Origin: Alphaproteobacteria bacterium
GTDB taxonomy: Bacteria; Pseudomonadota; Alphaproteobacteria; CAAHEQ01; UBA3637
Assembly: GCA_045638265.1 (NCBI GenBank)
Contig: JAZUBA010000044.1
Span: forward strand, 62,082 to 126,081
DNA length: 64,000 nucleotides
Reading direction: 5' to 3'
Of the stretch, positions 6,175-23,982 are shown piece after piece; within the stretch, counting starts at the first letter, position 1; the number at the start of each line of letters is the position of its first letter. The notes below the pieces were generated by a model, which was not told the DNA's origin, did no database searches, and saw only the letters and a program-made list of their open reading frames with translations. Both the position numbers and the translations under genes were made by a program.

Positions 6175-7107
6175 ATGTTTTTCATAAAAAAAGCTTTACC
6201 AAAAATTTTGTTAGGAATGATATTTGTGTGCGGGATGAGTTTTTATCCTAATGCTTATGCACAAGTCCCGATTTCGGGGTTTACACAGATAGTTACAGAT
6301 GTGACAAAAGTGATTAAAACAACCAATTCAGTTGCAATTAAACCTGTAGTTGATCAAAAAGTATATCTTGAAACGAAAGTACAAGGTACTGTTCAAGAAT
6401 GGAAAGGTGCGGTGAACGAGCAAATTACAGATATGTACGATTCGGCATCTTCATGGGCAGAAAATCAGTATGGCGAAGTCGCTTCTTGGGCAGAGGAAAA
6501 GGGGAATGCTGTCGCTTCATGGGCAAGTGATCAAGGAAGTGCGATTTCTTCATGGGCAAGTGACACGTTTGGTGGTGGAGCTCCTGGTAGTGGTTTCTCT
6601 ATGAAAGATTTAAAATGTAATTTGGAAGTCGTAAAAAAAGGTGTTGCTAAAGTCGGAAAAACAGTTGCTCCTGTTGCTACATTAATGCAAAATCCTCTTG
6701 CAGGTGCCATTGAAATTAAAAAGAAAATGTATATGGGAGAAGTAAATTCAGAAGATAAATTAAGTACTTATGATACAACTACCGTAATGCAAAATGTAAA
6801 ACAATATGTTCAGGATGCAACGAAAACAACGTTGGTTGATGCAACACAGGTTATTAATGGCAGTATTTCTTATTCGGATGGAAAAAAGAGTGTATCTAGT
6901 TGTACAGCAGAGGGTGCCAATAAGGCCTCTAATGTAAAAGAGGATATTAAATTGGTTAATGATATGGGTATTTCAACGAATGTGATGACGAATGTGTTGT
7001 TGTCAATGGATATTACCGAATTATCTGTTAATAGTACATTGGTTTATGAAGATATTAACGGTATTAAAAATATGTTTTCTAAAACATTTCAGGGAGGGAT
7101 GCAATAA
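6175..7107 (+). CDS. Secreted helical protein, VirB5-like candidate 1
   Basis: Sec signal ending AYA|QVP, helical C-terminal region, first gene of the cluster leading into virB8. Confidence 0.45.
   Translation: MFFIKKALPKILLGMIFVCGMSFYPNAYAQVPISGFTQIVTDVTKVIKTTNSVAIKPVVDQKVYLETKVQGTVQEWKGAVNEQITDMYDSASSWAENQYGEVASWAEEKGNAVASWASDQGSAISSWASDTFGGGAPGSGFSMKDLKCNLEVVKKGVAKVGKTVAPVATLMQNPLAGAIEIKKKMYMGEVNSEDKLSTYDTTTVMQNVKQYVQDATKTTLVDATQVINGSISYSDGKKSVSSCTAEGANKASNVKEDIKLVNDMGISTNVMTNVLLSMDITELSVNSTLVYEDINGIKNMFSKTFQGGMQ
6445..6570 (+). repeat. Four ~33-bp (11-aa) SWA-centred repeats inside ORF 6175
   Basis: SSWAENQYGEV / ASWAEEKGNAV / ASWASDQGSAI / SSWASDTFG. Confidence 0.75.
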
Positions 7108-8012
7108 TGATTAAAAAAATAGTTTTAACAAATGTATTTCTTTCTTTGATGCTTTTTTCATCTGTGGTCTGGGGTGGTAATCCTACACATGATGTGCGTT
7201 CTTATAAAGATGAAATAAAGGGCGCTCAACAAGCTACGGAAGAGTTAAAAAAAGAAATGGATAATATGACAACTGCTGTTAAAAGCTTGACGGATGTTGG
7301 GTCGTTGGTTGATGGTCTGTTGAATTTTGATTTTTTAATGCCAAGTAAAAAAACAGATAAAAAATCAAAAGTAACAACGGATGTGACAAAACCGTTTACA
7401 CAAAAAACATCAGCTGGTTCAGGTGATGTTGCTGGACAGGCAAAGGCTGTAGCTAGTTCGATAACTGGGAGTTCTGGAAGTGACGATGAAAACCCTTTTC
7501 CTGATAGAGCAGAAATGAATAAGCAAGTGGATGCAATGCAGGTTAAAGGTGAGTCTTCATCTGATTCAGAAAGTAGTGGTTCGGTTGTGGATACGGCAAA
7601 AAGCGTCGTATCATCGGCAAGCGGTCAAAGTGAAGAAAACAGTTCTACTGGACAAGAGATTGCAGGTAAACGAAAAAAAATGCCTCAAACCAAACAAGCT
7701 TGGGCAAGATATTCGCTTGCAACAGCATTGGTGAATCGTTCGTTGGCATATAGGACTGTTGCTGATACTAAAAAACAGACAACAGAAAAAGTAAATAATG
7801 CAACAAATCTGCGTAAAGCACATACAGCAAAGGTTCATGGCTATTCAGCAATGGCAGCCAGTTATAACAGATTGTTATTGTCACAAGCCGTTGCCAATGG
7901 ATTAGCTTCCTTGAAAGCAATGGATCATGTTGAAGGTAAAATCAGTATCAGCAATCCTTTAATGGAAGGTATGGGCGGAAAGATGAATGATCTTAAAAAT
8001 TTTGTTCAATAG
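7107..8012 (+). CDS. Secreted helical protein, VirB5-like candidate 2
   Basis: Signal peptide then GNPTHD (cf. the VirB5/TrbJ mature N-terminus GIPVxD). C-terminal helices include VNNATNLRKA. Confidence 0.55.
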   Translation: MIKKIVLTNVFLSLMLFSSVVWGGNPTHDVRSYKDEIKGAQQATEELKKEMDNMTTAVKSLTDVGSLVDGLLNFDFLMPSKKTDKKSKVTTDVTKPFTQKTSAGSGDVAGQAKAVASSITGSSGSDDENPFPDRAEMNKQVDAMQVKGESSSDSESSGSVVDTAKSVVSSASGQSEENSSTGQEIAGKRKKMPQTKQAWARYSLATALVNRSLAYRTVADTKKQTTEKVNNATNLRKAHTAKVHGYSAMAASYNRLLLSQAVANGLASLKAMDHVEGKISISNPLMEGMGGKMNDLKNFVQ

Positions 8013-8021
8013 GAGTGAAAA

Positions 8022-8801
8022 ATGAAGATAAAAAAGATATATGGCGTATTGATAGCTTTTGCACTTTTTATGAATGTAACTCCGGCATATTCAACATATA
8101 TGGTTACCGAATGGTTGAGTTGGGCTGAAAAAAAAGTCCAAACGGTTACTGAAAAATTGGCTGATATTGATATGAATGAAATGTTGCAAAAGAAAAAAGA
8201 TCAGTTAGCAGCACAAGATCCGAACGCAGATAAAAGTAAACCGGCAACAACAGACAATGCGAGTGGTTTAAAGCAGTCAGAAATTCCACCTTATGTTGAT
8301 CCGCGTATTAAGGCAGAACTTGATAAAGAAGACCCTTCTATTCCTACTGTTGAAGGGTTGTTAAAAGAAACTCTTGTGTATAAATCAAAAACCATTAGTG
8401 ATAAAGGTTCTGTTGATGATAGAACAAAAGGAAAAAAAGTTAAAGTCGATAAAGATAACGAACAGGATAATACGTTGGAAAAACAACAGGCACAAGCTCT
8501 TGTATCTTATGATAATGGTCGTGCAATAGCACGTCGTGTTCAGGATTTGAGTGAAGTGGTGAGTAATGATGAATCTGAAATGGAGACGGATAAAAATTCA
8601 CGGACAACAACGGGTTCATTGTATAAGGCTTCTTCGTCTATAACATATAAAACACATATGTTATTAAATGAAATATCAGTCATACGAAACAGTTATTTAG
8701 AAGTAATGGCTATTGATGCTGTACAAGCAGAAGAAGTGCCAGAGCAAAAGAGTATGGTAGATACAATGAAAGATGTTGCAAAAGGTGCATTGGGCGGATA
8801 A
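8022..8801 (+). CDS. Secreted helical protein, VirB5-like candidate 3
   Basis: Signal peptide ending PAYS. Similar size and helical C-terminal architecture to its neighbours. Confidence 0.45.
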   Translation: MKIKKIYGVLIAFALFMNVTPAYSTYMVTEWLSWAEKKVQTVTEKLADIDMNEMLQKKKDQLAAQDPNADKSKPATTDNASGLKQSEIPPYVDPRIKAELDKEDPSIPTVEGLLKETLVYKSKTISDKGSVDDRTKGKKVKVDKDNEQDNTLEKQQAQALVSYDNGRAIARRVQDLSEVVSNDESEMETDKNSRTTTGSLYKASSSITYKTHMLLNEISVIRNSYLEVMAIDAVQAEEVPEQKSMVDTMKDVAKGALGG

Positions 8802-8812
8802 AGGGGGATGCG

Positions 8813-9694
8813 ATGAAATATTTGATAATGTTTTTAATGGTATTTGTTTTTATAACAGAGGGTAATGCAGCGTGTCCGGCAATGACATTTGATATGGCAC
8901 GGGAAGCGAAAGAGGCTGTTCGTAAGATTAAAGAATATGCTATTGAGTATTATGAAGATTTAATCAGTAAAAGCGAAGATGATATTAAAGAAGCAAAACA
9001 AGGTAATGCTGATTGTAAAAACAGTCCGGAAAATACAAAAGATCAAGTAATTAAAACAGAAACATTTAAGTATTTGTATGACAAGGTCTTAGATGCACCG
9101 GAAGATGATGCTGATTATTATTTGGCACGAACAAAAAATTATGAAGAAGCAAGAATTGCTGTTAAAGAAAAGTTTTTTTACGAAACGGATACACAATTAA
9201 CAGAGCGTGGAGAATCATTAAAAGAAGTTACCGGATTTGATGCAACCGCAACCGGTGGATTGAAAACAACAGCTGAGTTGTTTGAGATATTGAGAACACG
9301 TGAAAAATATGCAAATGCCGTTGCAGCAAAAAATTTGGCAATATCTATGGATTTAAGAGAAAAAATTGGTACTGATTTGAAGTCTACTGAAAAAGTGGCA
9401 ACGAGTGGATGTAACCAATTGCAAGGTATGTTGTTGGAAAATAGAAATTTAGCAGCATTATTAAAAGAAACGGCTTCGGATTTGGTTGTTCAGATATTGA
9501 CATTGGAATCGTTAGCAGCAAGAAATTTACAAAAAGAATCGCCACAGTTGTTGACTGTTCCTAATAAAGCTAAAAAGAATGAAAAGTCTATGTTGGGAAA
9601 AACTGTGGATAGCGTTAAAGAAACAGCCGGAGATGTTTCCGGTATTGTAAACAATTTGTCATCTGTTGGTGCTTCGGCAATGTCCGGATTTTAA
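8813..9694 (+). CDS. Secreted helical protein, VirB5-like candidate 4
   Basis: Signal peptide then ACPAMTFD, long amphipathic helices. Confidence 0.45.
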   Translation: MKYLIMFLMVFVFITEGNAACPAMTFDMAREAKEAVRKIKEYAIEYYEDLISKSEDDIKEAKQGNADCKNSPENTKDQVIKTETFKYLYDKVLDAPEDDADYYLARTKNYEEARIAVKEKFFYETDTQLTERGESLKEVTGFDATATGGLKTTAELFEILRTREKYANAVAAKNLAISMDLREKIGTDLKSTEKVATSGCNQLQGMLLENRNLAALLKETASDLVVQILTLESLAARNLQKESPQLLTVPNKAKKNEKSMLGKTVDSVKETAGDVSGIVNNLSSVGASAMSGF

Positions 9695-9706
9695 AAGGAG
9701 TGTAAT

Positions 9707-10546
9707 ATGAAGTATAATAAAAAATCTTTTTTAGTTTATTCACTCGCATGTTTTGTTATTGTTGCATCAGTTTCATCTGCACATGCTATTTGTTTAGTAA
9801 ACCCCACTATGTGTCCGGTTGAAATGTGTGGTTATCAAACACAGGAAAGTCCTTCGGCACAAATGATGCAAAAAGTAACAACAGGATATAAAACAGCCAA
9901 AAAAGAAATAAAGAGCATTCGTAAGTCTGTGTCGGGTATTATGAAATCTGTAACGGCACTGCCGGGGATTGTCATGGGATTGGCGGCACAAGTTGCCAGT
10001 TTGCCGTTTGAAGCAGTTAGTTCAACGTTGGGTTTAACAGAAGATAAACAAAAAAAAGCGGAAGATGATCCAAACAATGTAACACAATACAACACTCATG
10101 GCATGCAAACCGTTCAAACAAGAATAGACGAAAACTTAAAAACCTATAATACAGAAGCTAACTCTGATTATGACAGTCAATATTTTAATTTGGCACGTCG
10201 GCAATTTATTCGTCAGCAGGCAACGATTACTTTGATGGCACGTGTTGCTGTGTTGAAGAGTTATTTTAAAGATATACATGACGCCATGGAACAAGCAGAT
10301 AAAGAAATTGAAAAAATTTCTGCTCAATCTTCAGGCGAGGCAAGTAATTCCTATAATGAATCATCGGTTGGGAAGATGAATTTGGCATTAAAGCAGGCTT
10401 GGTTTAATTTGTTGACTATCCAGAAACAAGTAGAAGCTGTTAAATTGGAATTTGCTTCAAATCAGGCAATAGCCGGTATGAAAATGACAAAAAAAGTACC
10501 CACGGTAAGTGGTAATAAAGATTCATCTAATCAATCAAAAAAATAA
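9707..10546 (+). CDS. Secreted helical protein, VirB5-like candidate 5
   Basis: Signal peptide ending AHA, Cys-containing mature N-terminus, helical C-terminal bundle. Confidence 0.45.
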   Translation: MKYNKKSFLVYSLACFVIVASVSSAHAICLVNPTMCPVEMCGYQTQESPSAQMMQKVTTGYKTAKKEIKSIRKSVSGIMKSVTALPGIVMGLAAQVASLPFEAVSSTLGLTEDKQKKAEDDPNNVTQYNTHGMQTVQTRIDENLKTYNTEANSDYDSQYFNLARRQFIRQQATITLMARVAVLKSYFKDIHDAMEQADKEIEKISAQSSGEASNSYNESSVGKMNLALKQAWFNLLTIQKQVEAVKLEFASNQAIAGMKMTKKVPTVSGNKDSSNQSKK

Positions 10547-10556
10547 GGGGGATAAT

Positions 10557-12221
10557 ATGAAATATTCAATTTTGTTATTGGCAGGAATTTCATTTGTTGG
10601 GTTAAGTGCTATTTATTCAACACCTGCAACAGCACAATTTGTACAAGCAGAACCGTATGTTGATCCGGATCCGATTCAACCGGCAATCGGTAATTATCAA
10701 GAACCACTGATGCGTGCTATGAAAATACACGACATACAGTATAATATTAATGATTTGCAAAAACTCCTTATTCCGTTAGCTGAAAATGAAAAAGCAAACA
10801 AGGAATTGGCGGAAGCTCAATTAAGTGCTATGGCGGATTGTAATATTCAAAATTTATCCCTGTATTTTAACAATCCGGAAGAGGTATGGTCAAAATTGCT
10901 GGATACATATCAATCTAAAATTAAAGAATTAACTATTCATATTAATAGTGCTGGTTTAGAAGCTGATATTGAATCAGGTAATGCTGAAAATGCAACGGTA
11001 GCAGCTCAATCCATCACGAGTGAAGAAGAAATGGCTGAATCTTATCCCTATTGGCGTGTCGGATATCAGATTTTGATGGATTTATACAATAATCCCGAAA
11101 ATTATGGTTCAACAGATGGAAAAGCAAAATTGCCTTTATGGATAGACCAAAAATACCAATATACAAAAGATGTTGTTGCTTTGTTGACACAAATCAAAAC
11201 ACATTTTTGGATTCATAATACATTAAATGATGTTGCAAATGCAGATTTAGTTCGATTAATTAATCGTTTTTCACAAACAGACGGTATTTTGGATACTTTG
11301 GATTATCAGAAAAATTTAAGTCAATATAATGAGTTGATATCTTATTTGAAAAAGCGTAGAAATTATAGTGAGACAGCTAAAAAAATAGCCAATATTGATA
11401 AGTTTCCACAATTACCGAAACCATTACCGCCTGTATATGAGATTATACAGCCTATGATGGAAAAAAAAGAACAAGAACGGTTGGTGATGTTCCCTCAATG
11501 GCCATCTCCTTGGGCAAGATATATTCGTGAAGGATTAAAGGATAGAGCAAAAAATGGTGAAATGGATACATTCTTTTTGCCAAAAACAATTAATTTACGC
11601 CCTGAAGTTTTGGGTTGGGATTCAACGAAAATTAACAACAGATTGTCAGTTTACCATGAAAAACAAAATGATGTTGACAGTTATACAAAAAGTTATGAAA
11701 CAGCAAAACAAAATGTTGAAAATACTGTTGCAAGCGTTAACGAGAGTTTGAAAGAATTAGGAATTGAGGAAATATTGGATTTGTCTGCTGATGTAACGGC
11801 TTTGCAAAACAAACTGGTTGAATTAAAATTGGCAGAAGTTCAAAAAGCTCGTTCCTTGTTTGAACAAAATGCAGCAACAATTAAAAAAGAAAATTCTGTA
11901 TCTGTTGAAGCGACAACAAAGGACAGTTTAAATGCTTTAGCTAATTTAGATCCTTCGTCAGAAGAATATCAACTATTAGCTACACAAATGAATGCAGCAC
12001 AAGGTTCTCATGATGAAGGGTTAATGGATGATTTGGAAAAAGATAAAAATGGATATGCCATTCAATCTCCGATTGCAACAAATGATCCTGTTCAAAATAT
12101 AGAAGCACAAGAAGCAGAATATGTGTTGCATGCAAAAACTATTGATGCTTCTGAAAAAGAGCGTGAACAGATTAGACAACGAGCAATTGATTTATTGTGT
12201 ATTAATGGTGGTGTAAAATAA
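10557..12221 (+). CDS. Secreted coiled-coil protein of unknown function in the T4SS cluster
   Basis: ATG at 10557 follows a GGGGG RBS (track start 10509 is an upstream extension). Signal peptide ending ATA|Q. One base from the first virB8. Confidence 0.6.
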   Translation: MKYSILLLAGISFVGLSAIYSTPATAQFVQAEPYVDPDPIQPAIGNYQEPLMRAMKIHDIQYNINDLQKLLIPLAENEKANKELAEAQLSAMADCNIQNLSLYFNNPEEVWSKLLDTYQSKIKELTIHINSAGLEADIESGNAENATVAAQSITSEEEMAESYPYWRVGYQILMDLYNNPENYGSTDGKAKLPLWIDQKYQYTKDVVALLTQIKTHFWIHNTLNDVANADLVRLINRFSQTDGILDTLDYQKNLSQYNELISYLKKRRNYSETAKKIANIDKFPQLPKPLPPVYEIIQPMMEKKEQERLVMFPQWPSPWARYIREGLKDRAKNGEMDTFFLPKTINLRPEVLGWDSTKINNRLSVYHEKQNDVDSYTKSYETAKQNVENTVASVNESLKELGIEEILDLSADVTALQNKLVELKLAEVQKARSLFEQNAATIKKENSVSVEATTKDSLNALANLDPSSEEYQLLATQMNAAQGSHDEGLMDDLEKDKNGYAIQSPIATNDPVQNIEAQEAEYVLHAKTIDASEKEREQIRQRAIDLLCINGGVK

Positions 12222-12222
12222 A

Positions 12223-12867
12223 ATGAGGCTGTTTGGCTTTAAAGAAAGTGATATTGTTGTTGGTTCAGGTAAAAGTTTTGCCCAGTTGTGGATGATTATT
12301 GCTTCTGTGTTTTTGGGTATTAATCTTTTCCTGATACTGACATTATTGCAAATAACGCCCAGATTGAAAGTTGTGGCGCAGGTTTTAACAGTAACACCTA
12401 TGAATTCAGGTCAGTTTTTACAAGTTGAACCTTTTGATCAGGAAACAAGTGATAAGAAATTAATTGATGAGATGTTAATTCGTTTTTATATGGATTCACG
12501 TCATAATTCTTTTGGGGATAAACTTGAAATGACATATCGTTGGGGTAAAGGAGGACCTGTTCATCGCTTATCTTCTTCAAAAGTATATAATGAGTTTGCT
12601 GGAAATTTTAAAGAAAAAATAAATGCAGCTTCCAAGCAAAAGTCAACAACGAGTATTCGTATTATGAATATTACAATTCGTCAAAATAATATATATGATA
12701 TTGAATTTGAAAAATATAAATTAACGAAGGGTGTTTTGGAATCCAGACGAAAAAATGCTGTTTTGAAAGTGGCATATTCATCACAATATAAATCAATGGG
12801 ACGTTTACCGATTAATCCCTACGGTATGTATGTTGTGTATTATAACGAAACAAATAAATTGAGGTAA
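12223..12867 (+). CDS. virB8: VirB8-family T4SS protein (copy 1)
   Basis: Single TM, then LIRFYMDSR, VHRLSSSKVYNEF and C-terminal INPYGMYV (NPxG motif). Confidence 0.75.
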   Translation: MRLFGFKESDIVVGSGKSFAQLWMIIASVFLGINLFLILTLLQITPRLKVVAQVLTVTPMNSGQFLQVEPFDQETSDKKLIDEMLIRFYMDSRHNSFGDKLEMTYRWGKGGPVHRLSSSKVYNEFAGNFKEKINAASKQKSTTSIRIMNITIRQNNIYDIEFEKYKLTKGVLESRRKNAVLKVAYSSQYKSMGRLPINPYGMYVVYYNETNKLR

Positions 12868-12948: not shown

Positions 12949-13128
12949 ATGAAAAAAAATCTAGTAGCTCTTGCTTTTTTAGCTGTAATTGCTGTTCTTG
13001 CTGCTTGTGGTTCTGTTTATGAAAAAGAACCTGTCGGTGTTGGAGCAGATTATTCTGAATTAAAAAAATCTCCTTGTGCATGCTTAGAAGTTGAAAAAGC
13101 TCCTAAATTGCCAAGTTGGTTTTTATAA
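12949..13128 (+). CDS. virB7: VirB7-like small lipoprotein
   Basis: ATG 12949 after AAGGA, lipobox LAA|C, 59 aa, KSPC motif, located between two virB8 genes. Confidence 0.65.
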   Translation: MKKNLVALAFLAVIAVLAACGSVYEKEPVGVGADYSELKKSPCACLEVEKAPKLPSWFL

Positions 13129-13151: not shown

Positions 13152-13856
13152 ATGGAACAATTTGAGCAATCAAATAATTCATCTTATGATGTTGTATATG
13201 ATGCTGATAATTCAGAAGAAGCAGCAACCGAGCGGCGCTATCTTTGGATTGCCCGTACGTTTGCTCTTATTTCGGTTGTTTCATTTTTGGGAACACTTAT
13301 TTTATTAATTGCTTTGTTTTCTTTAATGCCGGTTATGCGTGTTCAACCTTTTTATTTGACAACGCTGAACAAAGATCAACAAATTGTTCAAATTCAGAAA
13401 CCTAAAATTGAAGATATTGATATGCAATTATTAACCGAATCATTAATCAGACAATATGTCTTGGCTCGTTTTACGGTTAGTTCTAATATTTCTGAAATGG
13501 TGCGCCGTTGGGGCTTGGATGGCATTGTGAACCAAATGAGTGATCAAACGGTTTTTGCGGAGTTTAGTAGTGCGGCAGAAGATGTGTTAGCTCAAGTAAG
13601 ACAACAAGGCTTAACCCGTTCAGTTCGGATTTTGAATGTTCGTAATCTTGGCTCTGATGCTGGTACAAATAAAAGTGTTTGGGTTGCAGAAATTGAAGTA
13701 ACCAGTATGAAGCAAGGCGATGCGGAACCTGTAAAAAGTACATGGGTAGTGCGTATGCGTGTGTATTATGAGGGACGCACAGGTGCTGTTTGGGAAAAAC
13801 GATTACAAAATCCGCTTGGTTTTAAAGTTGATCGCTTTGGTATACAGGCAAAATAA
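13152..13856 (+). CDS. virB8: VirB8-family T4SS protein (copy 2)
   Basis: TM, LMPVMRVQPF, LIRQYVLAR, C-terminal RLQNPLGFKV. Confidence 0.85.
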   Translation: MEQFEQSNNSSYDVVYDADNSEEAATERRYLWIARTFALISVVSFLGTLILLIALFSLMPVMRVQPFYLTTLNKDQQIVQIQKPKIEDIDMQLLTESLIRQYVLARFTVSSNISEMVRRWGLDGIVNQMSDQTVFAEFSSAAEDVLAQVRQQGLTRSVRILNVRNLGSDAGTNKSVWVAEIEVTSMKQGDAEPVKSTWVVRMRVYYEGRTGAVWEKRLQNPLGFKVDRFGIQAK

Positions 13857-14359: not shown

Positions 14360-16090
14360 ATGTATACACACAATTCATATAAAATTTGTTGGTTGACAAG
14401 TGTAGCTTTGGCTACGTTTATTTCAACAGTATCAATGGCACAATCCATTTTGCCGGCAAACATGCAAACAGAACAACTCAATGATGCAGTTGCTCAAACG
14501 AATGGCGAGTTTGAATCTGTTAATTTAGATTATTTAAATTCACTGGGTATGCAACAAAAGGCATGGAATGATCCTTTATCACATATGGGCGAAGGTCAGT
14601 CAAAACCGGGATATTCAAAATATACATGGACTCCGGATGTTGTGTTACCGATTCGTTTGCGTGAAGGCATGATGACGTTAATTAATTTGCCGACTTGGGA
14701 ATTGGTTGAAAAAGTGCATATTGGTTCTCCTGAATCGTTTGGTGGTGAAATTGCTGCACCAAACTCTCTCCTCGTTTATGCTGATCCTTCTTATTTAGGG
14801 GTAGACAGTAATATGATTATTTTTGGCCGTTCAGGTAACAGATATGTATTCTATTTGCGCTCTGAAACATATAATACGGAAAAAATCACTCAGTCTGTTG
14901 TGGATGTTTTGGTTGGTCCAAAATATACGCCGGTTGAAAATGGAGGAAAACTAGGAAATTTTAATGGTGCCACGACAACGGCAGCTGGTACAGGTTCTTT
15001 GGGTGCAGGTGCTCCGAATTGGTCGGGAAGTCGTGGCAACGGACAAAATCCGCAACTTGGATTAAATACGGCATCAACCGGCCCAAAAGATTGGTTGAAA
15101 AATATTCCGGTAGATCCAGAAAGTTTTCATTTTGATATAGATATGTATTTGCCAAATCCGTCAGATGTTGATATTGCACCGGATAATGTATGGAGAGATA
15201 ATATTTTTACATACATTGATTTAGGACCAAAAGCCTTAACAATGACGCAACGTCCAATTGTCAATTTAGTTGTTCAGGATGCTGAAGTCCCTGTTGGTTT
15301 TAGAACCAGTGGCCCGAATAGTCGTTTGATTGTTGTTGAGGGTATTGGTGATATGGTTTTGCGTAACGGTAAAAAGTTAATTTGCTTGAAGTTGCGTAGA
15401 GATCCATCTTCCGGTTTGGAATATACTGATTATAGTGGTTCTCAAAGCAATTCTTTGGTAAAACCGTCAACTATCAGTAAAGAACCGGTAGATATTGTTC
15501 CGGAAACAAAATCTGAAATGCCAAAAGCTCAAAATGCGGAAATGGCAGAAAGTTCTGAAAAAGTAGCACAAAATAATGCAAAACAAATTGAGCAATATTT
15601 TAATCAGGCAAATAATGTGCCAGTTTCTGGAATGCCAATTGCTCAATCCGGCATGATTCAATCTCCTGTGGTATATCAAGGTGCTTCCGTTATGTATGAA
15701 CAAAACATGTCACCACTACCAGCTATTCCGGCAACAGTTATGAATTCTCCAACGGCATCTGCTAATATTGTTAATGTTATGAATGATGTTGTTTCTGCAC
15801 GTCCGGGTGTGTCATCGCCAGTAAGTGATAAAGAAACAATTTCTATTGAATTAGGGACAAATGCGGACATTTCAGAATTAGAATCGATTTGGGAAACGAT
15901 ATACACACAAAATAAAGATACATTAGAGGGATATGAACCATATTATTCTGTTGATACAACGGCAGATGGTAATATGAGAGAATTATTCCGCTTGCGTGTT
16001 GGTCCTGTTAAGGATGTAAAAACAGCAGATAAATTATGTAAAAAATTGGGACGGAAAGGATTCTCTTGTTCTGTTGTGCGGATGCAATAA
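14360..16090 (+). CDS. virB9: VirB9/TrbG-family protein with low-complexity linker and C-terminal SPOR domain
   Basis: Signal peptide, SNMIIFGRSGNRYVFYL, IAPDNVWRDNIFTYID and LRNGKKLIC match VirB9. C-terminal FRLRVGPVKDVKTADKLCKKL..G.SC is SPOR-like. Confidence 0.8.
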   Translation: MYTHNSYKICWLTSVALATFISTVSMAQSILPANMQTEQLNDAVAQTNGEFESVNLDYLNSLGMQQKAWNDPLSHMGEGQSKPGYSKYTWTPDVVLPIRLREGMMTLINLPTWELVEKVHIGSPESFGGEIAAPNSLLVYADPSYLGVDSNMIIFGRSGNRYVFYLRSETYNTEKITQSVVDVLVGPKYTPVENGGKLGNFNGATTTAAGTGSLGAGAPNWSGSRGNGQNPQLGLNTASTGPKDWLKNIPVDPESFHFDIDMYLPNPSDVDIAPDNVWRDNIFTYIDLGPKALTMTQRPIVNLVVQDAEVPVGFRTSGPNSRLIVVEGIGDMVLRNGKKLICLKLRRDPSSGLEYTDYSGSQSNSLVKPSTISKEPVDIVPETKSEMPKAQNAEMAESSEKVAQNNAKQIEQYFNQANNVPVSGMPIAQSGMIQSPVVYQGASVMYEQNMSPLPAIPATVMNSPTASANIVNVMNDVVSARPGVSSPVSDKETISIELGTNADISELESIWETIYTQNKDTLEGYEPYYSVDTTADGNMRELFRLRVGPVKDVKTADKLCKKLGRKGFSCSVVRMQ

Positions 16091-16143
16091 ACAGAAAATC
16101 ACAAAAAGGAATATGGTTTAATTTCTATTAAAGTAGGATAACA

Positions 16144-19100
16144 ATGACAAGAAACAGAGGAACCAGCTCATCAGAGCAATATGCAAAAAAAAGTAATCGG
16201 CTTTTGTTGTTTGTAGGAATATTGGCTATCATTGTTTTTTTTGTATTAATTTTGTTGATGTCTGGAGGCAACAACAAAAAAGCTGAAACTGTGGAAACAG
16301 AAATTTGGGGAGGTGCATCAGATATTGATGATGTTGCTCCAAAACCAAAAGATGTCGATGTTTTTTATCGTGGTGAAGCTAAATTAAAAGCTGATCCGGA
16401 ACAAATCAGTATGGATAGAGTTGTTATTGGTTCTAAAGTGGATGCAATACTTACTTTAACTGCTGAAAATAAACCAATTCAATTTTTGAAAGTTGATTTC
16501 GTACAACAGCAGGCGGATGGTTTTACATTTGATACGACTTGTTCTGCAGATACGATTATTCAACCGGGTGAAAACTGTATTGTTAAAATTATGTGGAATC
16601 CGGTCAAGTTGCAACAATTGCAAAATAACTTGATTGTTACATGGAAAGAATCGTCAACAACTGCTTTCAATGATTTTACAACAAATGTCTTGGTTAAGGG
16701 ACAATCAATTGATTCAGAGTGTTGTGTTACCTGTGAAGATTCGGCAACAAAAAAAGAAGCAGAACCTCGCATGGCTATGGGATTGGATGGTAATCTTTAT
16801 GAAGTAGATAAAGATGGATACATTACGCTTCCTGATGGTACTCGAGTCAAAGTGACTGATAATGGCTTATTCATTGATGAAAACGGTAATATTGTCGGTA
16901 TTATTCAACCGGAATATATCGCTCTTAACATGAAAAACGAAGTTATCGGTAATATTACCCCATCAAACGAAGTGACAAATGCAAATGGCGAAAGCATCGG
17001 AAAATTGTTGGGTGATAAAACAATTGTTGATTCCAAATTAACGGTTTTGGGTGCTGGTGTTCCTGTTTTGCCTGTTATGAATAAACAAGGTGAAGTTGTT
17101 GGAAAAATGACGAAAGATGGAACAGTTGTTGATGCACAAGGAAAAGTAATAGGTAAAGTTTGGGTTGATGGACAGGCAGTTGCATTGGACGGAACTCAAA
17201 TCGGTTACATTCGTCCTTGGGGATTAGTCGCAGACTTTAATGGTAAAATCATTGGTGGTATTATTTCTGATGGTCGAGTCTTTAATGCTAAAAATGAAAC
17301 GGTAGCTCAAATTACACCAGGTGGATTTGCTATTAATACGCAAGGGGAATTAGTTGGTGCTACAATTCCGCAAGGGGTTGCTGTTGGTGCAGGGTGCCAA
17401 TCCTTAGGCAAAGTTTTGTTAAATGGCGACGTTCGAGATTCATTTGATCAAATTATTGGAACGGCATTGATTGACGGAACAATTGTTAATACAAAAAACG
17501 AGGAAATCGGTTCAGTTATTTCGCAAGGCCTTGTTATTAATGAAAGCGGTTCAGTTGTTGGTTTTGTAAACTCTGAAGGAAAAGCTGTCAGTGGACAAGG
17601 TAAAGTTATTGGTTGTGTTAACCCGAACGGAACAATTTCAGCTGGAAAAAGATTGGTCGGTTCTGTTTTGGCAAAAGGACACGTTATAGGCTATTCCTGT
17701 AATTCAATCGGTTCTGTTTTCCCATCTGGCGAAGTATACAATAGTGCTTTAAATGTCGTTGGTAAAGTAATGCCGGATGGTTTTGTCAAAGATGCTGAAA
17801 ACAAAATTATTGGTTTGGTTGTAACACGTGCGGCGGCAGTTGCTAATGGTTGTCGTTTGTTGGGATTGGTTTCAATTACCGGTGAGATTATTGATTTAAG
17901 CAAAAAAGTTGTCGGATGTTTGACACCTGAAAAAACAGTTGTTGATTCTAGCGGTAAAATTGTTGGATCTATTGCTCCACGAGGTGTTGTCTATAAAGAT
18001 GACGGTTCAATTTTGGGTCGTGTTCGCTTAGATGGTAAGGTAATGGATTTGCAAGGGAAGGTCATCGGTTGCTATAATGCAGATGGGACTATTACAACAT
18101 TATCCGGTGAAATATTGGCTCATGGTAAACAAGGTGATGGTGTTATTCTTGATGCTGACGGTAATCCGACGGGCTGGACACGAATCGGTAACGAAATCTT
18201 TGATGCTAACGGAAATAAAATCGGTGAAGTTAACAGTAATAATGTGATTGTAGATGCAAATGGCCGTTATATAGGATTTATACCTGAAAATGGTGTTATT
18301 TTCTCACCGGAAGGTTTGATTATTGGACGTTATTCATCAAAAATCGGTTACGCAGTTAATCAAAACAATGAACGTTTTGGTCGTATATTACCAAATAATA
18401 CGGTTGTGAGTGCTGATACAGGTGAAGTTGTTGGCGGATTAATTCCTGATAATGCCGGATTTATTGATAAAGGTAGTAAATTACTCGGCTATATGAAGGT
18501 TGATGGTACACTAACTGATAATGAAGGTAATATTATTGGTGCTATCAGGGGTGATGGAACAGTTATTGATAAAGATGGTAATGTTATTGGTTATCGTATT
18601 TTAGAAGGCCGTGTTGTATCAATGACCGGTAAAGATGTCGGTACTGTTATGAAAGACGGGACTGTTGTTTCCGGAGAACATACAACAATTGGTCATGTTG
18701 ATGGATTAGGTCTTGCTGTATCTGAAAATGGTAAAATTTTAGGTGCTGTTATGCCAAAACTCGGGTTAGGGTATGATGGTGTTGGCTTATTAGGTTATAT
18801 GGCTCCTGATGGTACTATGACAGACAATAGTGGTAGTGTTATAGGAAAGGCCTTGCCATTTGGATTGATTGTTTCGGCAGATGGCACAGCTATTGGTAAA
18901 TTAAGAGATATGGCTGTTTATGTAAACCAAGACAACAAAACAATTGGTTGGATTTCATTTGAAGGTACATTAAAAGGAAAAGATAACCGTGTTGTTGGGA
19001 ATATTAAGCCGGCCGGTTTAGCTACGGATAAAAATAACAATTTAATTGGCTATGCTATTAACAAGGGCATTGTTGTTGATGGTTCAGGGAAGATGATTTC

Positions 19101-22100
19101 TACTGTTTCAGTAAATAATAAGATCTTGCAAAAAGAAAAATACTTAGGTGTTGCTTCCTCTACAAAATATGTCTATTCAATGGATGACAAAAAACTTGGT
19201 CAAGTATTGCAACCGGGTATTGCTGTTAATAACGATGGCGGATTATTAGGCTGGACGTTGCCTGATGGTACTATCGGCACAAATAAAGGGAGTATCGGTC
19301 GTGTTTTGTTTGACAACAAAGTCGTCAATACAAAGGGCGCTGTTATCGGATCATATATTCCTTTCGGAACAACTGCTTTTGATGATAAAGGTCAAACAAT
19401 CGGATTGGTTAATCAAAACGGTGAAATTGTAACAACTGATGAAATGGTTAAAGGTAAAATCAGAGGAACAGATACAGTTGTTCGCGGGAATAATATTGTT
19501 GGTCAGCTCTTGTCTGATTTGCCGTATATCAGCAATAATTTGCTTGGTAAAACATCGGGTGCCGCACAATTAAATGGTGAAGTTGTTAATGTAACGAATG
19601 GTAAGTCTATCGGTTCGTTGATGACAAATAATTTTGTAACCTCATTTGCCGGTCAGCTTGTTGCTACAAAAACGCCGTTAGGGGTTGCTGTAAATAACTC
19701 TTTGGCTACTTTAGGTGAGTTAAATGTTGATGGAAGTATTAACGGAAATAAAGGTCAAGATGCTCGTGTCAGCGGTTCTGGTGCAATTTATGATGCCGGT
19801 GGAAAGATTTCCGGTTCTGTTTTGCCAATATCAACCTTTATTAATAAAACAGGTGGATTATTAGGTAAAAACGGTACAAATAATCAGATTGTTGATCGAA
19901 CAGGTAAACAAATTGCCGTTCAAATGCCGTTTGGTACAGCTTTAACCGTTAATAACATTTGGGCAGGCGGTACATTACCAAGTGGTATGGCGGTTAATGA
20001 TGATGCTGTTCAATTGGGTGCGACGACTGCAGATGGTGTTGTTTTAGATGAAAATGATATGATTGTCGGTCGTGTATTGAGTGATGGTGCTGTTATCAAT
20101 GTATCTGACAGAGAATTGTTTAATACAATGCCGTACCTTGGTGGTATGGTTTCTCAAGGTATTCCGTTTAGTTATCGTAATAAAGTATTAGGTGCCACAA
20201 CGGTTAATGGTGATGTTATTGATAGCACAGGCGTTAAACTTTTCCGAATACTTGATGATGCTACAATTTTAGGTAAGGATGAACCATTAGTCGGTTCAAT
20301 TTTGCCGATTTTAACAGCTGTTTCCCATTCAGGTGAGTTTTTAGGTACATTGGGTGCTGATGGTCGAGTCATTTTACCAACTGGTGAAGCCAAAGGTAAA
20401 ATAGCTGTTAATGAAACGGTTAAAGGTGAAGAATTTGAAATTTTAGGGGCATTGGTTCCAAGGAGAACAATCACAAACGATTGTCAAATTATTGGTGTTT
20501 CAGCAATGAATGGTTATGTTGTTAATGCACGTGGAGCAGTTGTGGGTCGGGTTAAACCAGATAAATGGGCTGTTTCTCCATCCGGTGAAAAAATTGGTCG
20601 TGTGACACGTAATGGTTTGGTTATTTCTGAAACCGGCGAATATTTAGGTCGTACATTAACAGACTCAACGGTTGTTGACTTGTCAGGTGTCAATTTAGGT
20701 TGTGCTAAAAATGATGGTACAGTTGTTGATAACAATGGCAATGTTATTGGTAAAGTTGTTGAACGTGGTCTTGTTTTAGGTAAAGATGGTAAACCTTTGG
20801 GTCGTATTAAGGCAGACGGTTCTGTCGTGAATGCCAAGGGAGAAGTTGTTGGTAAAGTTTTGGCTAACGGTGATGTTGTTGATGAATACGGTAATGTTAT
20901 TGGACACAATATTGGACGTGACCAAGAAATTTTATACGATGAAAACGGCAATATTAAGGGTACGTTTGGTACAGATGGTACGTTCTATGATTCAAAAACA
21001 GGAAAAGCCGTATTCCGTGTTGATGAAAATGGAAATGTATATGATGCAAACGGTAATTTAATCGGAAAATACAAAGGCGGACAATTCACAACATTAAATG
21101 GTGATCCGATGGATGAAGTAACATTGTTGGTTGACAAAAACGGTAATGCCTTTGGTATTGTTTCTGATTGTGAGGTATTAAGTCCGACCGGAGGCGAAGT
21201 TATTGCTAAAATTCAACCGGATGGCAATGTAGTTGACATGAACGGTGAAGTAAAATATCGTATTTTAGGTACAGGTGTTATTTTGGATACTGCCGGAAAT
21301 GAAATTGGCAAAGTTTCAGGTACATCTGTTAAGTTAGATAAATGTGGTATTAAGAGTATGGATGCTGTGAGCGATGATATTATCGGTCGTTTAAAAGATG
21401 GTATTCTTTATGATAAAGACGGTAATGTAATCGGTGAATTAAAAGACGGTATTCTTTATGATAAAGATGGCAATATTATTGGTTATGTCAAAGATGGCAT
21501 TATTTATGACAAAGATGGTAATATTATTGGTTATATTGATGAAAACGGTAATGTTCACTTGTATGGTAAATCCGGAGATGGTGTTGGTACGGGTGAAGGC
21601 GTAGCTGGACGTGCTATTTTTATCGGAAATAAAAAGTATAATATAACATCTGATGGTAAATCTATTGTAACTGATGATGGTACAATTATTGGTTACATGG
21701 GAGAAGATGGTAAGCCATACACATTGGACAATCGTCAATTAACCGCCAGTGGTGATGCAGCCGGTCGTTCTCGCCCGAATTTTGCGCAACGCCAAGTTGC
21801 AACACCTGAACAAATTCAAAAAATGAAGGATTTGCTGACGAAAAAACGTGAAAGTATGAAAACAAATATACTTGAACGTGGTAAAATTACAGCGGGTGCT
21901 CATGTAAAAGCAATGAGCAGACAGAAAAAAGATGCAAATTGGAAGGGAGTTCCTCGCTCGGTTTCTTCATGGCCGGTTGATATGTCTCGTATGATTTTAC
22001 AGGATAAAGCGATTCCGGCAGTGTTGGTACGTTCTGTTGATTCACGATTCTCTGATGTTCCTGTAACAGCTATTGTTGAACGGCATGTTTATGCTGAAAA

Positions 22101-22968
22101 GGGACGTAACATTTTAATTCCGGCCGGTAGTCGTGTTATCGGTAAGATGTCATCAGGCAGTTATAATGGCAGAGTTGCTAAAATGGAAATTACATGGGAA
22201 CGTTTGATTCGTCCAGATGGTGGTGCCTTTAAATTTACGGCAACATCCGGTGATGCTCAAGGTAGAGGTGGTGTTGCTGCCTATTTGGATGACCAGTTAA
22301 TCAACAAATATGGTAAGCCGGTTATGACATCTGTTGTTACATCTGCGGTATCTTATATGATGGCAGCAAATGATGACTATACGCAAAATGTAAATGACGG
22401 TACGACAACCCAATCTTCAAAATCACAAGCAGTTGCTGATGCACGAGAAAGCTTTATTAGTGCCATGGATAGAATTTTCAATAATTTGATTGAAGATGCA
22501 ACAAGTATCCCAAATGTTGTGTTTGTTCCTTCCGGTACACGTATTACAATTTTCTCACAAGAAGATTTATGGTTGCGTTCAGAAGAAGATGACATTGAAG
22601 AATACGCTAATTCCAGTGATTATCAAGATATGTCTCAAGCTCAAAAGCCGAATACAAGTTCTTGGGTTGATAAACGAACTGGTGGTGATTCTGAAACTGA
22701 GGAAGATGAAGATACAGAAGATGAAGAAGATTCTGAAAAATCTGATGAAGATAAGAAATCAGAGTTACCAAATTATTATCAGCCGAATGATTCATATAAA
22801 TCGTCGTCGGTCAATGGTAATGATGTTGTTTTAAATTCTGTTACCTCTTCGACAAATGAACCAGTTTATGATGGCACCGCGAATCGGGTTGTTGAGGATA
22901 TTCCACTCAAAGAACGTGCAGTCGTACCTGTTTTACCGAAAAGCGGTACTTCTAGCCGATTATTTTAA
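16144..22968 (+). CDS. virB10: Giant VirB10/TrbI-family protein (TM, Ig-like domain, ~1600 aa of beta-hairpin repeats, TrbI domain, acidic tail)
   Basis: C-terminal IPAVLVRSVDS, ILIPAGSRVIG, WERLIRPDG, DAQGRGG. Lies between virB9 and virB11. Confidence 0.85.
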   Translation: MTRNRGTSSSEQYAKKSNRLLLFVGILAIIVFFVLILLMSGGNNKKAETVETEIWGGASDIDDVAPKPKDVDVFYRGEAKLKADPEQISMDRVVIGSKVDAILTLTAENKPIQFLKVDFVQQQADGFTFDTTCSADTIIQPGENCIVKIMWNPVKLQQLQNNLIVTWKESSTTAFNDFTTNVLVKGQSIDSECCVTCEDSATKKEAEPRMAMGLDGNLYEVDKDGYITLPDGTRVKVTDNGLFIDENGNIVGIIQPEYIALNMKNEVIGNITPSNEVTNANGESIGKLLGDKTIVDSKLTVLGAGVPVLPVMNKQGEVVGKMTKDGTVVDAQGKVIGKVWVDGQAVALDGTQIGYIRPWGLVADFNGKIIGGIISDGRVFNAKNETVAQITPGGFAINTQGELVGATIPQGVAVGAGCQSLGKVLLNGDVRDSFDQIIGTALIDGTIVNTKNEEIGSVISQGLVINESGSVVGFVNSEGKAVSGQGKVIGCVNPNGTISAGKRLVGSVLAKGHVIGYSCNSIGSVFPSGEVYNSALNVVGKVMPDGFVKDAENKIIGLVVTRAAAVANGCRLLGLVSITGEIIDLSKKVVGCLTPEKTVVDSSGKIVGSIAPRGVVYKDDGSILGRVRLDGKVMDLQGKVIGCYNADGTITTLSGEILAHGKQGDGVILDADGNPTGWTRIGNEIFDANGNKIGEVNSNNVIVDANGRYIGFIPENGVIFSPEGLIIGRYSSKIGYAVNQNNERFGRILPNNTVVSADTGEVVGGLIPDNAGFIDKGSKLLGYMKVDGTLTDNEGNIIGAIRGDGTVIDKDGNVIGYRILEGRVVSMTGKDVGTVMKDGTVVSGEHTTIGHVDGLGLAVSENGKILGAVMPKLGLGYDGVGLLGYMAPDGTMTDNSGSVIGKALPFGLIVSADGTAIGKLRDMAVYVNQDNKTIGWISFEGTLKGKDNRVVGNIKPAGLATDKNNNLIGYAINKGIVVDGSGKMISTVSVNNKILQKEKYLGVASSTKYVYSMDDKKLGQVLQPGIAVNNDGGLLGWTLPDGTIGTNKGSIGRVLFDNKVVNTKGAVIGSYIPFGTTAFDDKGQTIGLVNQNGEIVTTDEMVKGKIRGTDTVVRGNNIVGQLLSDLPYISNNLLGKTSGAAQLNGEVVNVTNGKSIGSLMTNNFVTSFAGQLVATKTPLGVAVNNSLATLGELNVDGSINGNKGQDARVSGSGAIYDAGGKISGSVLPISTFINKTGGLLGKNGTNNQIVDRTGKQIAVQMPFGTALTVNNIWAGGTLPSGMAVNDDAVQLGATTADGVVLDENDMIVGRVLSDGAVINVSDRELFNTMPYLGGMVSQGIPFSYRNKVLGATTVNGDVIDSTGVKLFRILDDATILGKDEPLVGSILPILTAVSHSGEFLGTLGADGRVILPTGEAKGKIAVNETVKGEEFEILGALVPRRTITNDCQIIGVSAMNGYVVNARGAVVGRVKPDKWAVSPSGEKIGRVTRNGLVISETGEYLGRTLTDSTVVDLSGVNLGCAKNDGTVVDNNGNVIGKVVERGLVLGKDGKPLGRIKADGSVVNAKGEVVGKVLANGDVVDEYGNVIGHNIGRDQEILYDENGNIKGTFGTDGTFYDSKTGKAVFRVDENGNVYDANGNLIGKYKGGQFTTLNGDPMDEVTLLVDKNGNAFGIVSDCEVLSPTGGEVIAKIQPDGNVVDMNGEVKYRILGTGVILDTAGNEIGKVSGTSVKLDKCGIKSMDAVSDDIIGRLKDGILYDKDGNVIGELKDGILYDKDGNIIGYVKDGIIYDKDGNIIGYIDENGNVHLYGKSGDGVGTGEGVAGRAIFIGNKKYNITSDGKSIVTDDGTIIGYMGEDGKPYTLDNRQLTASGDAAGRSRPNFAQRQVATPEQIQKMKDLLTKKRESMKTNILERGKITAGAHVKAMSRQKKDANWKGVPRSVSSWPVDMSRMILQDKAIPAVLVRSVDSRFSDVPVTAIVERHVYAEKGRNILIPAGSRVIGKMSSGSYNGRVAKMEITWERLIRPDGGAFKFTATSGDAQGRGGVAAYLDDQLINKYGKPVMTSVVTSAVSYMMAANDDYTQNVNDGTTTQSSKSQAVADARESFISAMDRIFNNLIEDATSIPNVVFVPSGTRITIFSQEDLWLRSEEDDIEEYANSSDYQDMSQAQKPNTSSWVDKRTGGDSETEEDEDTEDEEDSEKSDEDKKSELPNYYQPNDSYKSSSVNGNDVVLNSVTSSTNEPVYDGTANRVVEDIPLKERAVVPVLPKSGTSSRLF
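21391..21534 (+). repeat. Three tandem 48-bp (16-aa) repeats in virB10
   Basis: LKDGILYDKDGNVIGE / LKDGILYDKDGNIIGY / VKDGIIYDKDGNIIGY, with high DNA identity. Confidence 0.85.
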
Positions 22969-22992
22969 TTAACCAATGAAAGGAGGGGGACA

Positions 22993-23982
22993 ATGGGTGA
23001 GTTATCAATCAGTGATACATATAAAGTGCTAGAATCGGCACTACGTCCCCTTTCATATTGGTATAATCAGGATAATGTAGAAGAAGTTGCCGTTGATTCA
23101 CCGGGCGGTATTTGGTTGCGGTTACGTGGCAAACATGCTCATCCTTGGCACTATTATGAAGATGGTAAATTAACAAGAGAGTTTTTAAATAACATCTTAT
23201 ATATCATTGCGAATACATACGATTATGCTTTTGATCCGGAACAAGGAACTCCTGTTGTGTATGCAACATTACCAGGAGGTCATCGTTTTACGGGTATTTC
23301 AGGCAGAAATGTTATGTATGATAACAACGACTTAACAGGCGGTATTGCATTGGCGATTCGTGTTTATCGTGAAGATGTTTCAATTAAAATGAGTGATTTC
23401 GGATTAAGTGAAGGGGCACGATTGCGACCGTTAAATCGTTTAAAGCAAGTTGAAGATCCTGACGATCCGTTTGAGCGTTTGCTCTTATCTATTAAACGTG
23501 GTGATCATGTTTTAGTTAGTGGTGCAACTGCAACCGGTAAAACAACATTCTTGAACAATTTAATCAAGATTTTGGACCCTCATAAACGTATTTTAACGAT
23601 TGAGGATACACGAGAATTAATTGTACCTCACAAAAACAGAGTTCATATTGTTTTACCTCGTACGGAATTAACTAATAAATTTGATTATAAGAGAGTTATT
23701 GACTTGGCTGTTCGTTTCACACCGGATGCGATTATTGGTGGTGAAATTTCAACGTCTAATGCCGGTGCATTATGGGAATTGATGGGATCAGGACATGATA
23801 ACTGTTTTGCTACCATTCACGCTGAAAGTCCCGAAGCAGCCTATAAAGCCTTTATTGGTAGAATTTTGCACTCATATCCGACAACGGATAGAGAAAAAAC
23901 ATATCGTGAAATGAAAGAAAAGTTACGTGTTGTGCAAATTAATCGTGATGGTAATATTCGTGCTGTTACTGAAGTTACATAA
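22993..23982 (+). CDS. virB11: VirB11 traffic ATPase
   Basis: Walker A GATATGKTT, Asp box IEDTREL, PDAIIGGEI, His box GHDNCFATIHA. Confidence 0.9.
   Translation: MGELSISDTYKVLESALRPLSYWYNQDNVEEVAVDSPGGIWLRLRGKHAHPWHYYEDGKLTREFLNNILYIIANTYDYAFDPEQGTPVVYATLPGGHRFTGISGRNVMYDNNDLTGGIALAIRVYREDVSIKMSDFGLSEGARLRPLNRLKQVEDPDDPFERLLLSIKRGDHVLVSGATATGKTTFLNNLIKILDPHKRILTIEDTRELIVPHKNRVHIVLPRTELTNKFDYKRVIDLAVRFTPDAIIGGEISTSNAGALWELMGSGHDNCFATIHAESPEAAYKAFIGRILHSYPTTDREKTYREMKEKLRVVQINRDGNIRAVTEVT

Follow-up and report, generated by a model that had tools for sequence, protein, structure and literature searches.

VirB10 is the one subunit of type IV secretion systems (T4SSs) believed to connect the two membranes and to relay signals between them by way of a flexible proline-rich linker. 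What, then, takes up the length of a VirB10 of 2274 amino acids? The question is raised by a 64,000-nucleotide stretch of alphaproteobacterial DNA (contig JAZUBA010000044.1, positions 62,082 to 126,081, assembly GCA_045638265.1), hereafter the window. An open reading frame (ORF) with no internal stop codon lies on its forward strand at 16144..22968, and it is the sole gene of the genome with a TrbI domain. We find that this ORF encodes the VirB10 of a chromosomal P-type T4SS, whose genes lie dispersed in the genome of an uncultured, small-genome alphaproteobacterium from animal gut. Most of the protein is a continuous array of about 97 β-hairpins that stands in the place of the linker.

The giant frame ends in a VirB10 barrel

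The membership of the protein in the TrbI/VirB10 family is carried by its C-terminal part. Pfam assigned residues 1951-2144 to TrbI (PF03743) with an E-value of 7.3e-33 and 114.4 bits against a cut-off of 35, the match running from position 2 to 188 of the 188 in the profile. In a sequence search of the Protein Data Bank (PDB), the domain matched ComB10 (2bhv, 4e-19) as well as 6gyb, TrwE (7o3j), CagY (8cb2) and TraF, while no chain, CagY and DotG included, matched the protein outside the TrbI domain. The structure was predicted with AlphaFold2 in two parts (residues 1-1100 and 1101-2274), using 62 homologues. The modelled β-barrel (residues 1945-2147, 21976..22584) resembled CagY 6x6k most closely (Z 18.0, 174 residues aligned), followed by Xanthomonas VirB10 (17.6), TrwE (17.3), TraF (17.2), the DotG dome (15.4), the TraB of the F plasmid (13.2) and ComB10 (12.9). 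Two helices at residues 2051-2074 and 2092-2120 of the model correspond to the antenna, and this region aligns with ComB10 and 6gyb. A preliminary description of the window, made from its letters and ORFs, had reckoned with a C-terminus that failed to match TrbI; Pfam and the model agree on the barrel.

The same description had listed a transmembrane helix and an acidic tail, and both are present. The protein begins with a short cytoplasmic tail containing a conserved SSSEQY.KKSNR motif and a single transmembrane helix (16144..16260). Only one hydrophobic segment was detected, with 19-residue windows starting at residues 16-27, and AlphaFold2 placed the helix at residues 14-39. At the other end, a helical linker (21805..21918; residues 1888-1911 and 1919-1925 in the model) precedes the barrel, and the barrel is followed by a tail (residues 2146-2274, 22585..22965) composed of 15% Ser, 13% Glu and 12% Asp. 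This tail is modelled as disordered, with a predicted local distance difference test score (pLDDT) below 50, and it varies from 80 to 163 residues among homologues; its extreme C-terminus (PV.P...F) is conserved. Proline makes up 3.0% of the whole protein, and the space of the canonical proline-rich linker is filled by an immunoglobulin-like domain and the hairpins.

An immunoglobulin-like domain leads into the array

Behind the membrane anchor, the preliminary description had recognized a cysteine-paired immunoglobulin (Ig)-like segment, and the model bears this out. Pfam gave only weak matches below the cut-off, to the ASH and HYDIN/VesB Ig families at residues 79-171 (E-values 1.8e-4 and 3e-4). 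The model of residues 75-191 (16366..16716), in which an eight-strand domain occupies residues 80-189, resembled the ASH/PapD-like domain of CEP192 (6fvi) with Z 13.0 and a root-mean-square deviation (rmsd) of 2.4 Å over 112 aligned residues, and VesB (4lk4) with Z 12.3 and an rmsd of 2.1 Å. Foldseek aligned the domain with HYDIN (2e6j) at a template modelling score (TM-score) of 0.71. C133 and C145 are cysteines in all 62 aligned homologues. The Ig-like domain is joined to the array by a CxxC motif (C194 and C197, 16723..16734) that is equally invariant (62/62). It had earlier been read as part of a larger CCVTC motif; C194 and C197 stand, while the first cysteine, C193, is replaced by Asp in 50 of the 62 homologues.

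The array consists of about 97 β-flower-type hairpins

From residue 210 or so to residue 1860 (16771..21723) the protein is built of about 97 hairpins of 17 residues each. Pfam assigned this region to Bflower_2 in 13 stretches (E-value 2.2e-91, 301.7 bits against a cut-off of 38), to Bflower (7.7e-31, 107.3 bits against 25) and to DUF3659 (6.2e-20), so the β-flower/DUF3659 character proposed earlier is supported. A BLOSUM autocorrelation of residues 200-1880 peaked at a lag of 17 (+0.25) and its multiples, the shuffled value being -0.88 ± 0.06. An iterated position-specific scoring matrix (PSSM) of 17 columns found 74 units, as compared with a mean of 1.65 and a maximum of 5 in 20 shuffles. 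The spacing between these units was exactly 17 residues in 49 of 73 cases, and the consensus was DG.V.D..G..IG.V.P. The [DNEQ]xxG motif that marks the hairpin tips of β-flowers (PMC10584680) recurs in the array with the same period. A simple hairpin hidden Markov model (HMM) recovered only 39 units, and the PSSM chain was used instead.

The fold of the array was read from the secondary structure, pLDDT and predicted template modelling score (pTM) of the AlphaFold2 models. The model of residues 1-1100 reached a pLDDT of 85.3 and a pTM of 0.77, and from residue 210 it consists of alternating strands of five and three residues with a period of 17. In the model of residues 1101-2274 (pLDDT 77.9, pTM 0.60), the hairpins continue to about residue 1860, with a pLDDT of about 90-96 up to residue 1740. 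The array is thus predicted to be one well-ordered body with regular strands of 5+3 residues, and its modelled extent of about 1,650 residues agrees with the roughly 1600 residues of repeats noted in the preliminary description. When the protein was searched in 150-residue tiles, Pfam found no family in residues 1081-1470. We considered a different domain in this region and rejected it, as AlphaFold2 gave the same hairpins there with a pLDDT of 91-96.

Comparison of the array with solved structures revealed no convincing relative. The top Foldseek matches were Rhs/YD shells, teneurins and the combined repetitive oligopeptides (CROPs) of toxins, with E-values down to 2.5e-16, but they were local only, with TM-scores of 0.05-0.11 and an rmsd of about 30 Å. 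Against Rhs shells in particular the TM-scores were 0.08-0.11, and RHS_repeat matches occurred in Pfam searches of some homologues and in none of the query at E ≤ 0.01. In a VIA search with the C-terminal model, the highest score for pieces of the array was Z 5.2, obtained on sialidase blades with 52-58 residues aligned. Among the 50 rows listed, the only teneurin chain scored Z 2.4 (44 residues), and Rhs chains were absent. The wide VIA search was dominated by matches to the Ig-like domain. As the array was hardly probed by these structure searches, a new fold is not thereby demonstrated.

The hairpins are conserved position by position and carry co-varying cysteine pairs

Conservation was assessed over the 62 homologues, which are 27-66% identical to the query; two segments at the cut between the two alignments were ignored as artefacts. 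Most 200-residue segments of the array hold their length, with medians of 199-201 residues and standard deviations of, for example, 0.4 residues at 401-600, 4.2 at 801-1000 and 6.9 at 1301-1500. The aligned sequences indicate that the array is collinear between orthologues. Length varies mainly in residues 201-400, 601-800, 1501-1700 and 1701-1880 and in the tail, and the segment 1701-1880 spans 83 to 348 residues among the homologues. This least conserved stretch of the array contains the sole notable repeat within virB10 at the DNA level, a 48-nucleotide tandem repeat of 3.3 copies with 81% matches (21377..21534). The homologues share 0.5-0.8 of their barrel residues with the query, as against 0.3-0.6 for the array and about 0.2 for the tail.

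The array of the query contains five cysteine pairs, 418-491, 519-592, 570-643, 1447-1520 and 1676-1734. Four of them are 73 residues apart, which corresponds to position 9 of hairpin k and position 14 of hairpin k+4, and the fifth is 58 residues apart. Where cysteines are lost among the 62 homologues, they are lost in pairs: C418 and C491 in 6 homologues each, all 6 shared; C519 and C592 in 9 and 8, with 8 shared; C1447 and C1520 in 2 each, both shared; and C1676 and C1734 in 17 each, all 17 shared. C570 and C643 are kept in all 62. A distance of 73 is also the most frequent one between cysteines in the wider set, with 426 pairs in 115 homologues and 20 pairs in 11 proteins from other families.

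The giant gene recurs throughout a gut order

The source genome (1.98 Mb in 79 contigs, 100% complete by marker genes) yielded one TrbI match only, and all 13 of its Bflower_2 matches lie inside virB10. A protein search returned 152 matches, and among the 120 listed nearly all share the Pfam architecture. Sequences longer than 2,100 residues make up 117 of a stored set of 121, which includes the query and an identical database copy. The bacterial order was represented by 80 species genomes of one family and 16 genera, 0.7-2.0 Mb in size. A TrbI match was found in 75, with an open frame of 2,049-2,612 residues in 68 of them. The remaining seven have shorter frames of 464-1,839 residues, one of them in two pieces.

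Near-identical DNA was present in 20 public sequencing runs from 12 studies, all of animal gut. Contigs from two other DNA runs bridge the junction of virB9 and virB10 (14035-16833) and that of array, TrbI domain and virB11 (19371-23416, with 22 differences and no gaps). Within their cover, the contigs of these two DNA runs contain no length change in virB10, and the sole indel listed was a 1-nucleotide gap in one RNA contig of depth 3.2. Joints in public-run contigs were considered as length variants and rejected; the shorter side measured 20-26 letters, the origin was metagenomic, and they were taken as repeat or foreign matches. Related loci numbered 434 in the species-genome collection, and the best 80 all stem from metagenome bins, made from gut or rumen samples of rabbit, buffalo, sheep, deer, yak, goat and human; most of their titles name Alphaproteobacteria, and a few have other labels. 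The preliminary description had allowed for a chimera of a surface repeat protein and a normal virB10, and this explanation failed on the sole TrbI gene, the recurrence in the order and the bridging contigs.

The array arose within an Ig-bearing VirB10 subfamily

TrbI was matched in 96 of 301 sampled alphaproteobacterial genomes, a tally that includes one ordinary match from genome G119. Frames longer than 1,200 residues occurred in 15 of the 301 genomes, three from the family of the window and 12 from nine other families (1,280-2,838 residues). All other frames were at most 883 residues long, and VirB10 proteins of this sample that carry no array measured 105-883 residues, mostly about 360-580. 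Of the 12 giants from other families 11 were fetched, and the hairpin motif was found in every one (19-57 matches). In four of these families (f56, f58, f108 and f160) the protein is split over two genes: the upstream ORF encodes hairpins, and the second one a signal peptide, hairpins and the TrbI domain. The N-terminal half then comprises the tail, transmembrane helix, Ig-like domain, CxxC motif and hairpins, and such separate halves of 1,102-1,216 residues were found on long contigs. In the window, by contrast, the same elements form one uninterrupted frame.

A quick IQ-TREE tree was built from 33 TrbI domains, 10 of the 32 fetched loci being left out because phmmer gave no match. All 22 array-bearing proteins fell on one side of a branch with an SH-aLRT support of 100, with one long-branch protein of 822 residues among them. 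A single clade of array-bearing proteins was not rejected by the approximately unbiased test (p 0.398). The nearest VirB10 proteins that have no array are 506-822 residues long, with a lipobox or a transmembrane anchor and a linker of 6-13% Pro. They possess the same Ig-like domain, as indicated by HMM E-values of 2.4e-14, 5.7e-10, 8.9e-7 and 1.4e-3 in a small search of the fetched ORFs only. As these array-less sisters combine the Ig-like domain with a proline-rich linker, the array arose in an Ig-bearing VirB10 subfamily, in which it took the linker's place. The Ig-like domain was not part of the expansion, since the nearest VirB10s of normal size have it.

Databases name the giants 'DUF3659 domain-containing', 'TrbI/VirB10 family' or '5-fold beta-flower protein'. 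We found no description of a giant hairpin VirB10 in the literature, most subscription journals lying outside the search.

The virB locus and its surroundings

All genes of the virB block lie on the forward strand. Upstream of virB10 are two virB8 paralogues (12223..12867 and 13152..13856), with a small lipoprotein gene between them (12949..13128) whose product, read from the sequence, has a LAAC lipobox and is a VirB7 candidate. They are followed by a virB9 homologue (14360..16090) of 576 residues, in which the CagX domain contains a Gly/Asn/Ser-rich insert and is succeeded by a C-terminal SPOR domain (E-value 3e-6). The gene for the VirB11 ATPase (22993..23982) lies directly downstream of virB10. 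Between a terminator-like hairpin at 6091-6114 and the first virB8 gene there are six further ORFs, u1-u6 (6175..12221; 310, 301, 259, 293, 279 and 570 residues), each with a signal peptide. Comparison of u1-u6 with one another revealed no similarity, and neither they nor the ORF at 24157-25818 matched a Pfam or NCBIfam family even at an E-value of 5. We regard u1-u6 as candidate components of the T4SS, or substrates of it, that are peculiar to this lineage. The order u6-virB8-virB8-virB9-virB10-virB11 recurs in at least 46, 67, 68, 74, 80 and 80 of 80 related loci, respectively, these counts being lower bounds as many loci stop at contig ends. Terminator-like hairpins flank the block on both sides (6091-6114 and 23991-24123); such hairpins are no commoner here than in shuffled sequences.

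Other contigs of the genome encode VirB3-VirB4, a TrbC pilin, two VirD4 proteins and a weak match to TrbL. A search of the genome for a PF03432 relaxase was negative, which is too thin a basis for telling effector export from DNA transfer. Directly upstream of the second VirD4 gene lies the gene for a pentapeptide-repeat protein of 572 residues (L104:6722-8440, contig C23).

Three further features of the window lie outside the block. An ORF of 1,083 residues (730-3981, forward strand) joins an LptF/LptG permease (residues 6-355, E-value 5e-69) to LptD_N/LptD (residues 407-1018, 2e-51), and a basic loop and a signal-peptide-like segment (residues 363-392, ending AYA|Q) lie between the halves. 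The LptD part may be cut free after export, or the fusion may reflect the simple loss of a stop codon between two genes. The ORF at 24157-25818 on the reverse strand encodes a secreted protein of 553 residues; its last 115 residues or so occur in five more copies with 41-46% identity, on contigs C18, C20 (three) and C34. Finally, a weak phage-integrase-like ORF (31012-32244, reverse strand) lies beside a stretch of 24% G+C (32001-34000), the G+C content elsewhere in the window being 30-38%.

Comparison with known systems

The protein shares with canonical VirB10 proteins (TraF 3jqo, TrwE 7o3j/8rt6, Xanthomonas citri VirB10 6gyb, ComB10 2bhv) the N-terminal transmembrane anchor, the barrel with its two-helix antenna (Z 12.9-17.6) and the gene order virB8-9-10-11. 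It differs from them in its length, in the acidic tail, and in having the Ig-like domain, CxxC motif and hairpins where the proline-rich linker would be.

CagY of Helicobacter pylori, also a VirB10 homologue of giant size, likewise has an extensive repeat region before the barrel, and the two barrels, though alike in structure, are 23% identical. The repeat number of CagY changes through recombination, whereas the array studied here is collinear between species. Furthermore, the CagY repeats are α-helical modules, as stated in PMC9371333, which cites Delahay 2008, whereas those encoded in the window are β-hairpins, and neither sequence nor fold comparison matched CagY anywhere but in the barrel. 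The Legionella protein DotG is also an enlarged VirB10 homologue, with a dome that matches the barrel. The repeats of DotG are pentapeptide repeats, while Pfam found no pentapeptide family in the giant VirB10. DotG and CagY each contribute to the periplasmic ring of their own machine (PMC9371333). An expansion independent of CagY and DotG, as suggested in the preliminary description, is therefore supported by the all-β array, by the confinement of PDB matches to the TrbI domain and by the lack of a pentapeptide family.

The β-flowers described by Durairaj et al. 2023 (PMC10584680) are small stand-alone domains of 8-12 strands and about 96 residues with no function assigned. Likened to them by profile and secondary structure, the array has Pfam scores far over the cut-offs of PF21784/PF21785 (clan CL0395), the [DNEQ]xxG tip, short strands with one long and one short loop, and no convincing relative in the PDB. 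It is unlike them in that its hairpins follow each other continuously, without linkers, within a secretion-system subunit.

When shorter proteins were searched with residues 400-900, 54 matches were obtained, about 30 of which are CpaB/RcpC proteins of Tad/Flp pili with 637-897 residues. They begin with a transmembrane helix. An example is P0137 (832 residues, Gilvimarinus sp. DA14, with the database name Flp pilus assembly protein CpaB), and some of the other flower-array CpaB/RcpC proteins are also named from Gilvimarinus species. Like VirB10, CpaB/RcpC is an inner-membrane-anchored component of an assembly machine, here of the pilus, and carries a similar array of 28-30 hairpin equivalents. 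Its array, however, hangs on the C-terminus, behind the SAF and RcpC domains, whereas that of VirB10 is inserted between two membrane-bound ends; the CpaB/RcpC arrays also have no cysteines (0 in 33 arrays).

Possible role of the array

Beyond the domain identities, order, conservation and distribution established above, we consider it probable that the array is a fixed, rigid structural scaffold in the periplasm that enlarges the T4SS core. In this proposal the N-terminal tail and transmembrane helix would sit in the inner membrane, and the TrbI barrel with its two antenna helices would belong to the outer-membrane core complex together with VirB9 and the VirB7-like lipoprotein. As both ends would be membrane-fixed, as in solved VirB10 complexes, we infer that the array lies in the periplasm, and the co-varying cysteine pairs point the same way. 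These pairs probably form disulfides that would hold hairpin k to hairpin k+4, and the co-variation together with the high pTM suggests a rigid, disulfide-stapled body. With 14 copies, by analogy with minimal systems, the arrays would add up to a cage or collar of about 2.5 MDa between the inner-membrane complex and the outer-membrane cap, with a role like that of the periplasmic ring of the Cag and Dot/Icm systems but made from one subunit. The position-specific conservation suggests that each hairpin has its own place in the assembly, and this speaks more for a scaffold than for a variable adhesin or a length spacer. Of the functions put forward in the preliminary description, a collar may be kept, whereas a mere length spacer is opposed by the strict conservation of individual positions; the widened periplasm mentioned there found no supporting evidence.

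Several observations weigh against this proposal. The NCBIfam equivalogs of VirB10 were below their cut-offs (NF038091, 102.5 bits against 220; NF010429, 28.9 against 374), and on sequence grounds the protein is a divergent family member and not an equivalog. The transcription of virB10 is only hinted at: two metatranscriptome libraries contained contigs on the gene with 0-2 differences, and such libraries can contain DNA. The cysteine pairs 519-592 and 570-643 interleave, a pattern at odds with closed flowers of five hairpins simply strung in a row. The length of the array varies, from 87 to 124 hairpin equivalents in close homologues and from 38 to 129 in other families; together with the split forms, this indicates that no one size is required. 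The flower-array protein P0132, which has an AAA_22 domain and no transmembrane helix, looks cytoplasmic, so the hairpin module is not intrinsically periplasmic. Lastly, both the stoichiometry and the location given above are taken by analogy from other systems.

A more far-reaching form of the scaffold proposal is possible, and we hold it tentatively. The array would then be a new rigid, disulfide-stapled periplasmic module, of which 14 copies would form a multi-megadalton cage or tube round the T4SS channel, and the whole would serve as a contact device for a partner-dependent life of reduced-genome gut alphaproteobacteria. Its independent recruitment by CpaB would make the module a general way to extend trans-envelope machines.

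Clearly less likely than the scaffold, in our opinion, is an array that binds peptidoglycan or the envelope by avidity and so anchors the machine in the wall or threads it through. SPOR domains bind peptidoglycan, and the partner VirB9 ends in one; moreover, CpaB/RcpC, which bears the same kind of arrays, belongs to the wall-crossing part of Tad pili. However, no binding motif or ligand site was identified in the array, and the conservation of each single hairpin position goes beyond what an unspecific avidity array would require. The arrays of CpaB also do without the cysteine staples, and the two uses of the array may therefore differ.

We think it improbable that the array is exposed on the cell exterior to act as an adhesin or to contact the host, a role that has been suggested for the repeat region of CagY. 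Such a display would agree with the extracellular binding repeats (Rhs/YD shells, teneurins and CROPs) that Foldseek ranks first and with the variable stretch at residues 1701-1880 with its tandem repeat. Yet these matches are local only, the one teneurin chain listed by the VIA search has a Z of 2.4, and the array lies between an inner-membrane anchor and an outer-membrane barrel. The rest of the array is, in addition, collinear and conserved, and no length change within the gene was seen in the contigs of two other DNA runs as far as they cover it.

That the frame is a functionless relic, or an assembly or binning artefact of a repeat protein and a normal virB10, is scarcely credible: repeats can mis-assemble in a genome of 79 contigs, and seven of 75 genomes of the order have short frames, but the architecture and length recur in 68 of the 80 species genomes and in 117 stored proteins, the junctions are bridged by contigs from other runs, 2,274 codons are open, and the genome holds neither a second VirB10 nor a Bflower_2 match outside this gene.

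Implications for type IV secretion and the β-flower family

In the only VirB10 of this genome, the linker is replaced by an ordered β-structure of about 180 kDa. T4SSs would then have been enlarged independently in three ways, in the Cag, the Dot/Icm and the present system. The β-flower fold, to which no function had been assigned so far, gains its first clear cellular context. A partner-dependent lifestyle has been proposed for one order of gut alphaproteobacteria with reduced genomes (PMC12306168), and the word 'secretion' does not appear in the accessible part of that paper. If the source genome of the window belongs to that order, the machine built with the giant VirB10 would be an obvious candidate for the contact apparatus.

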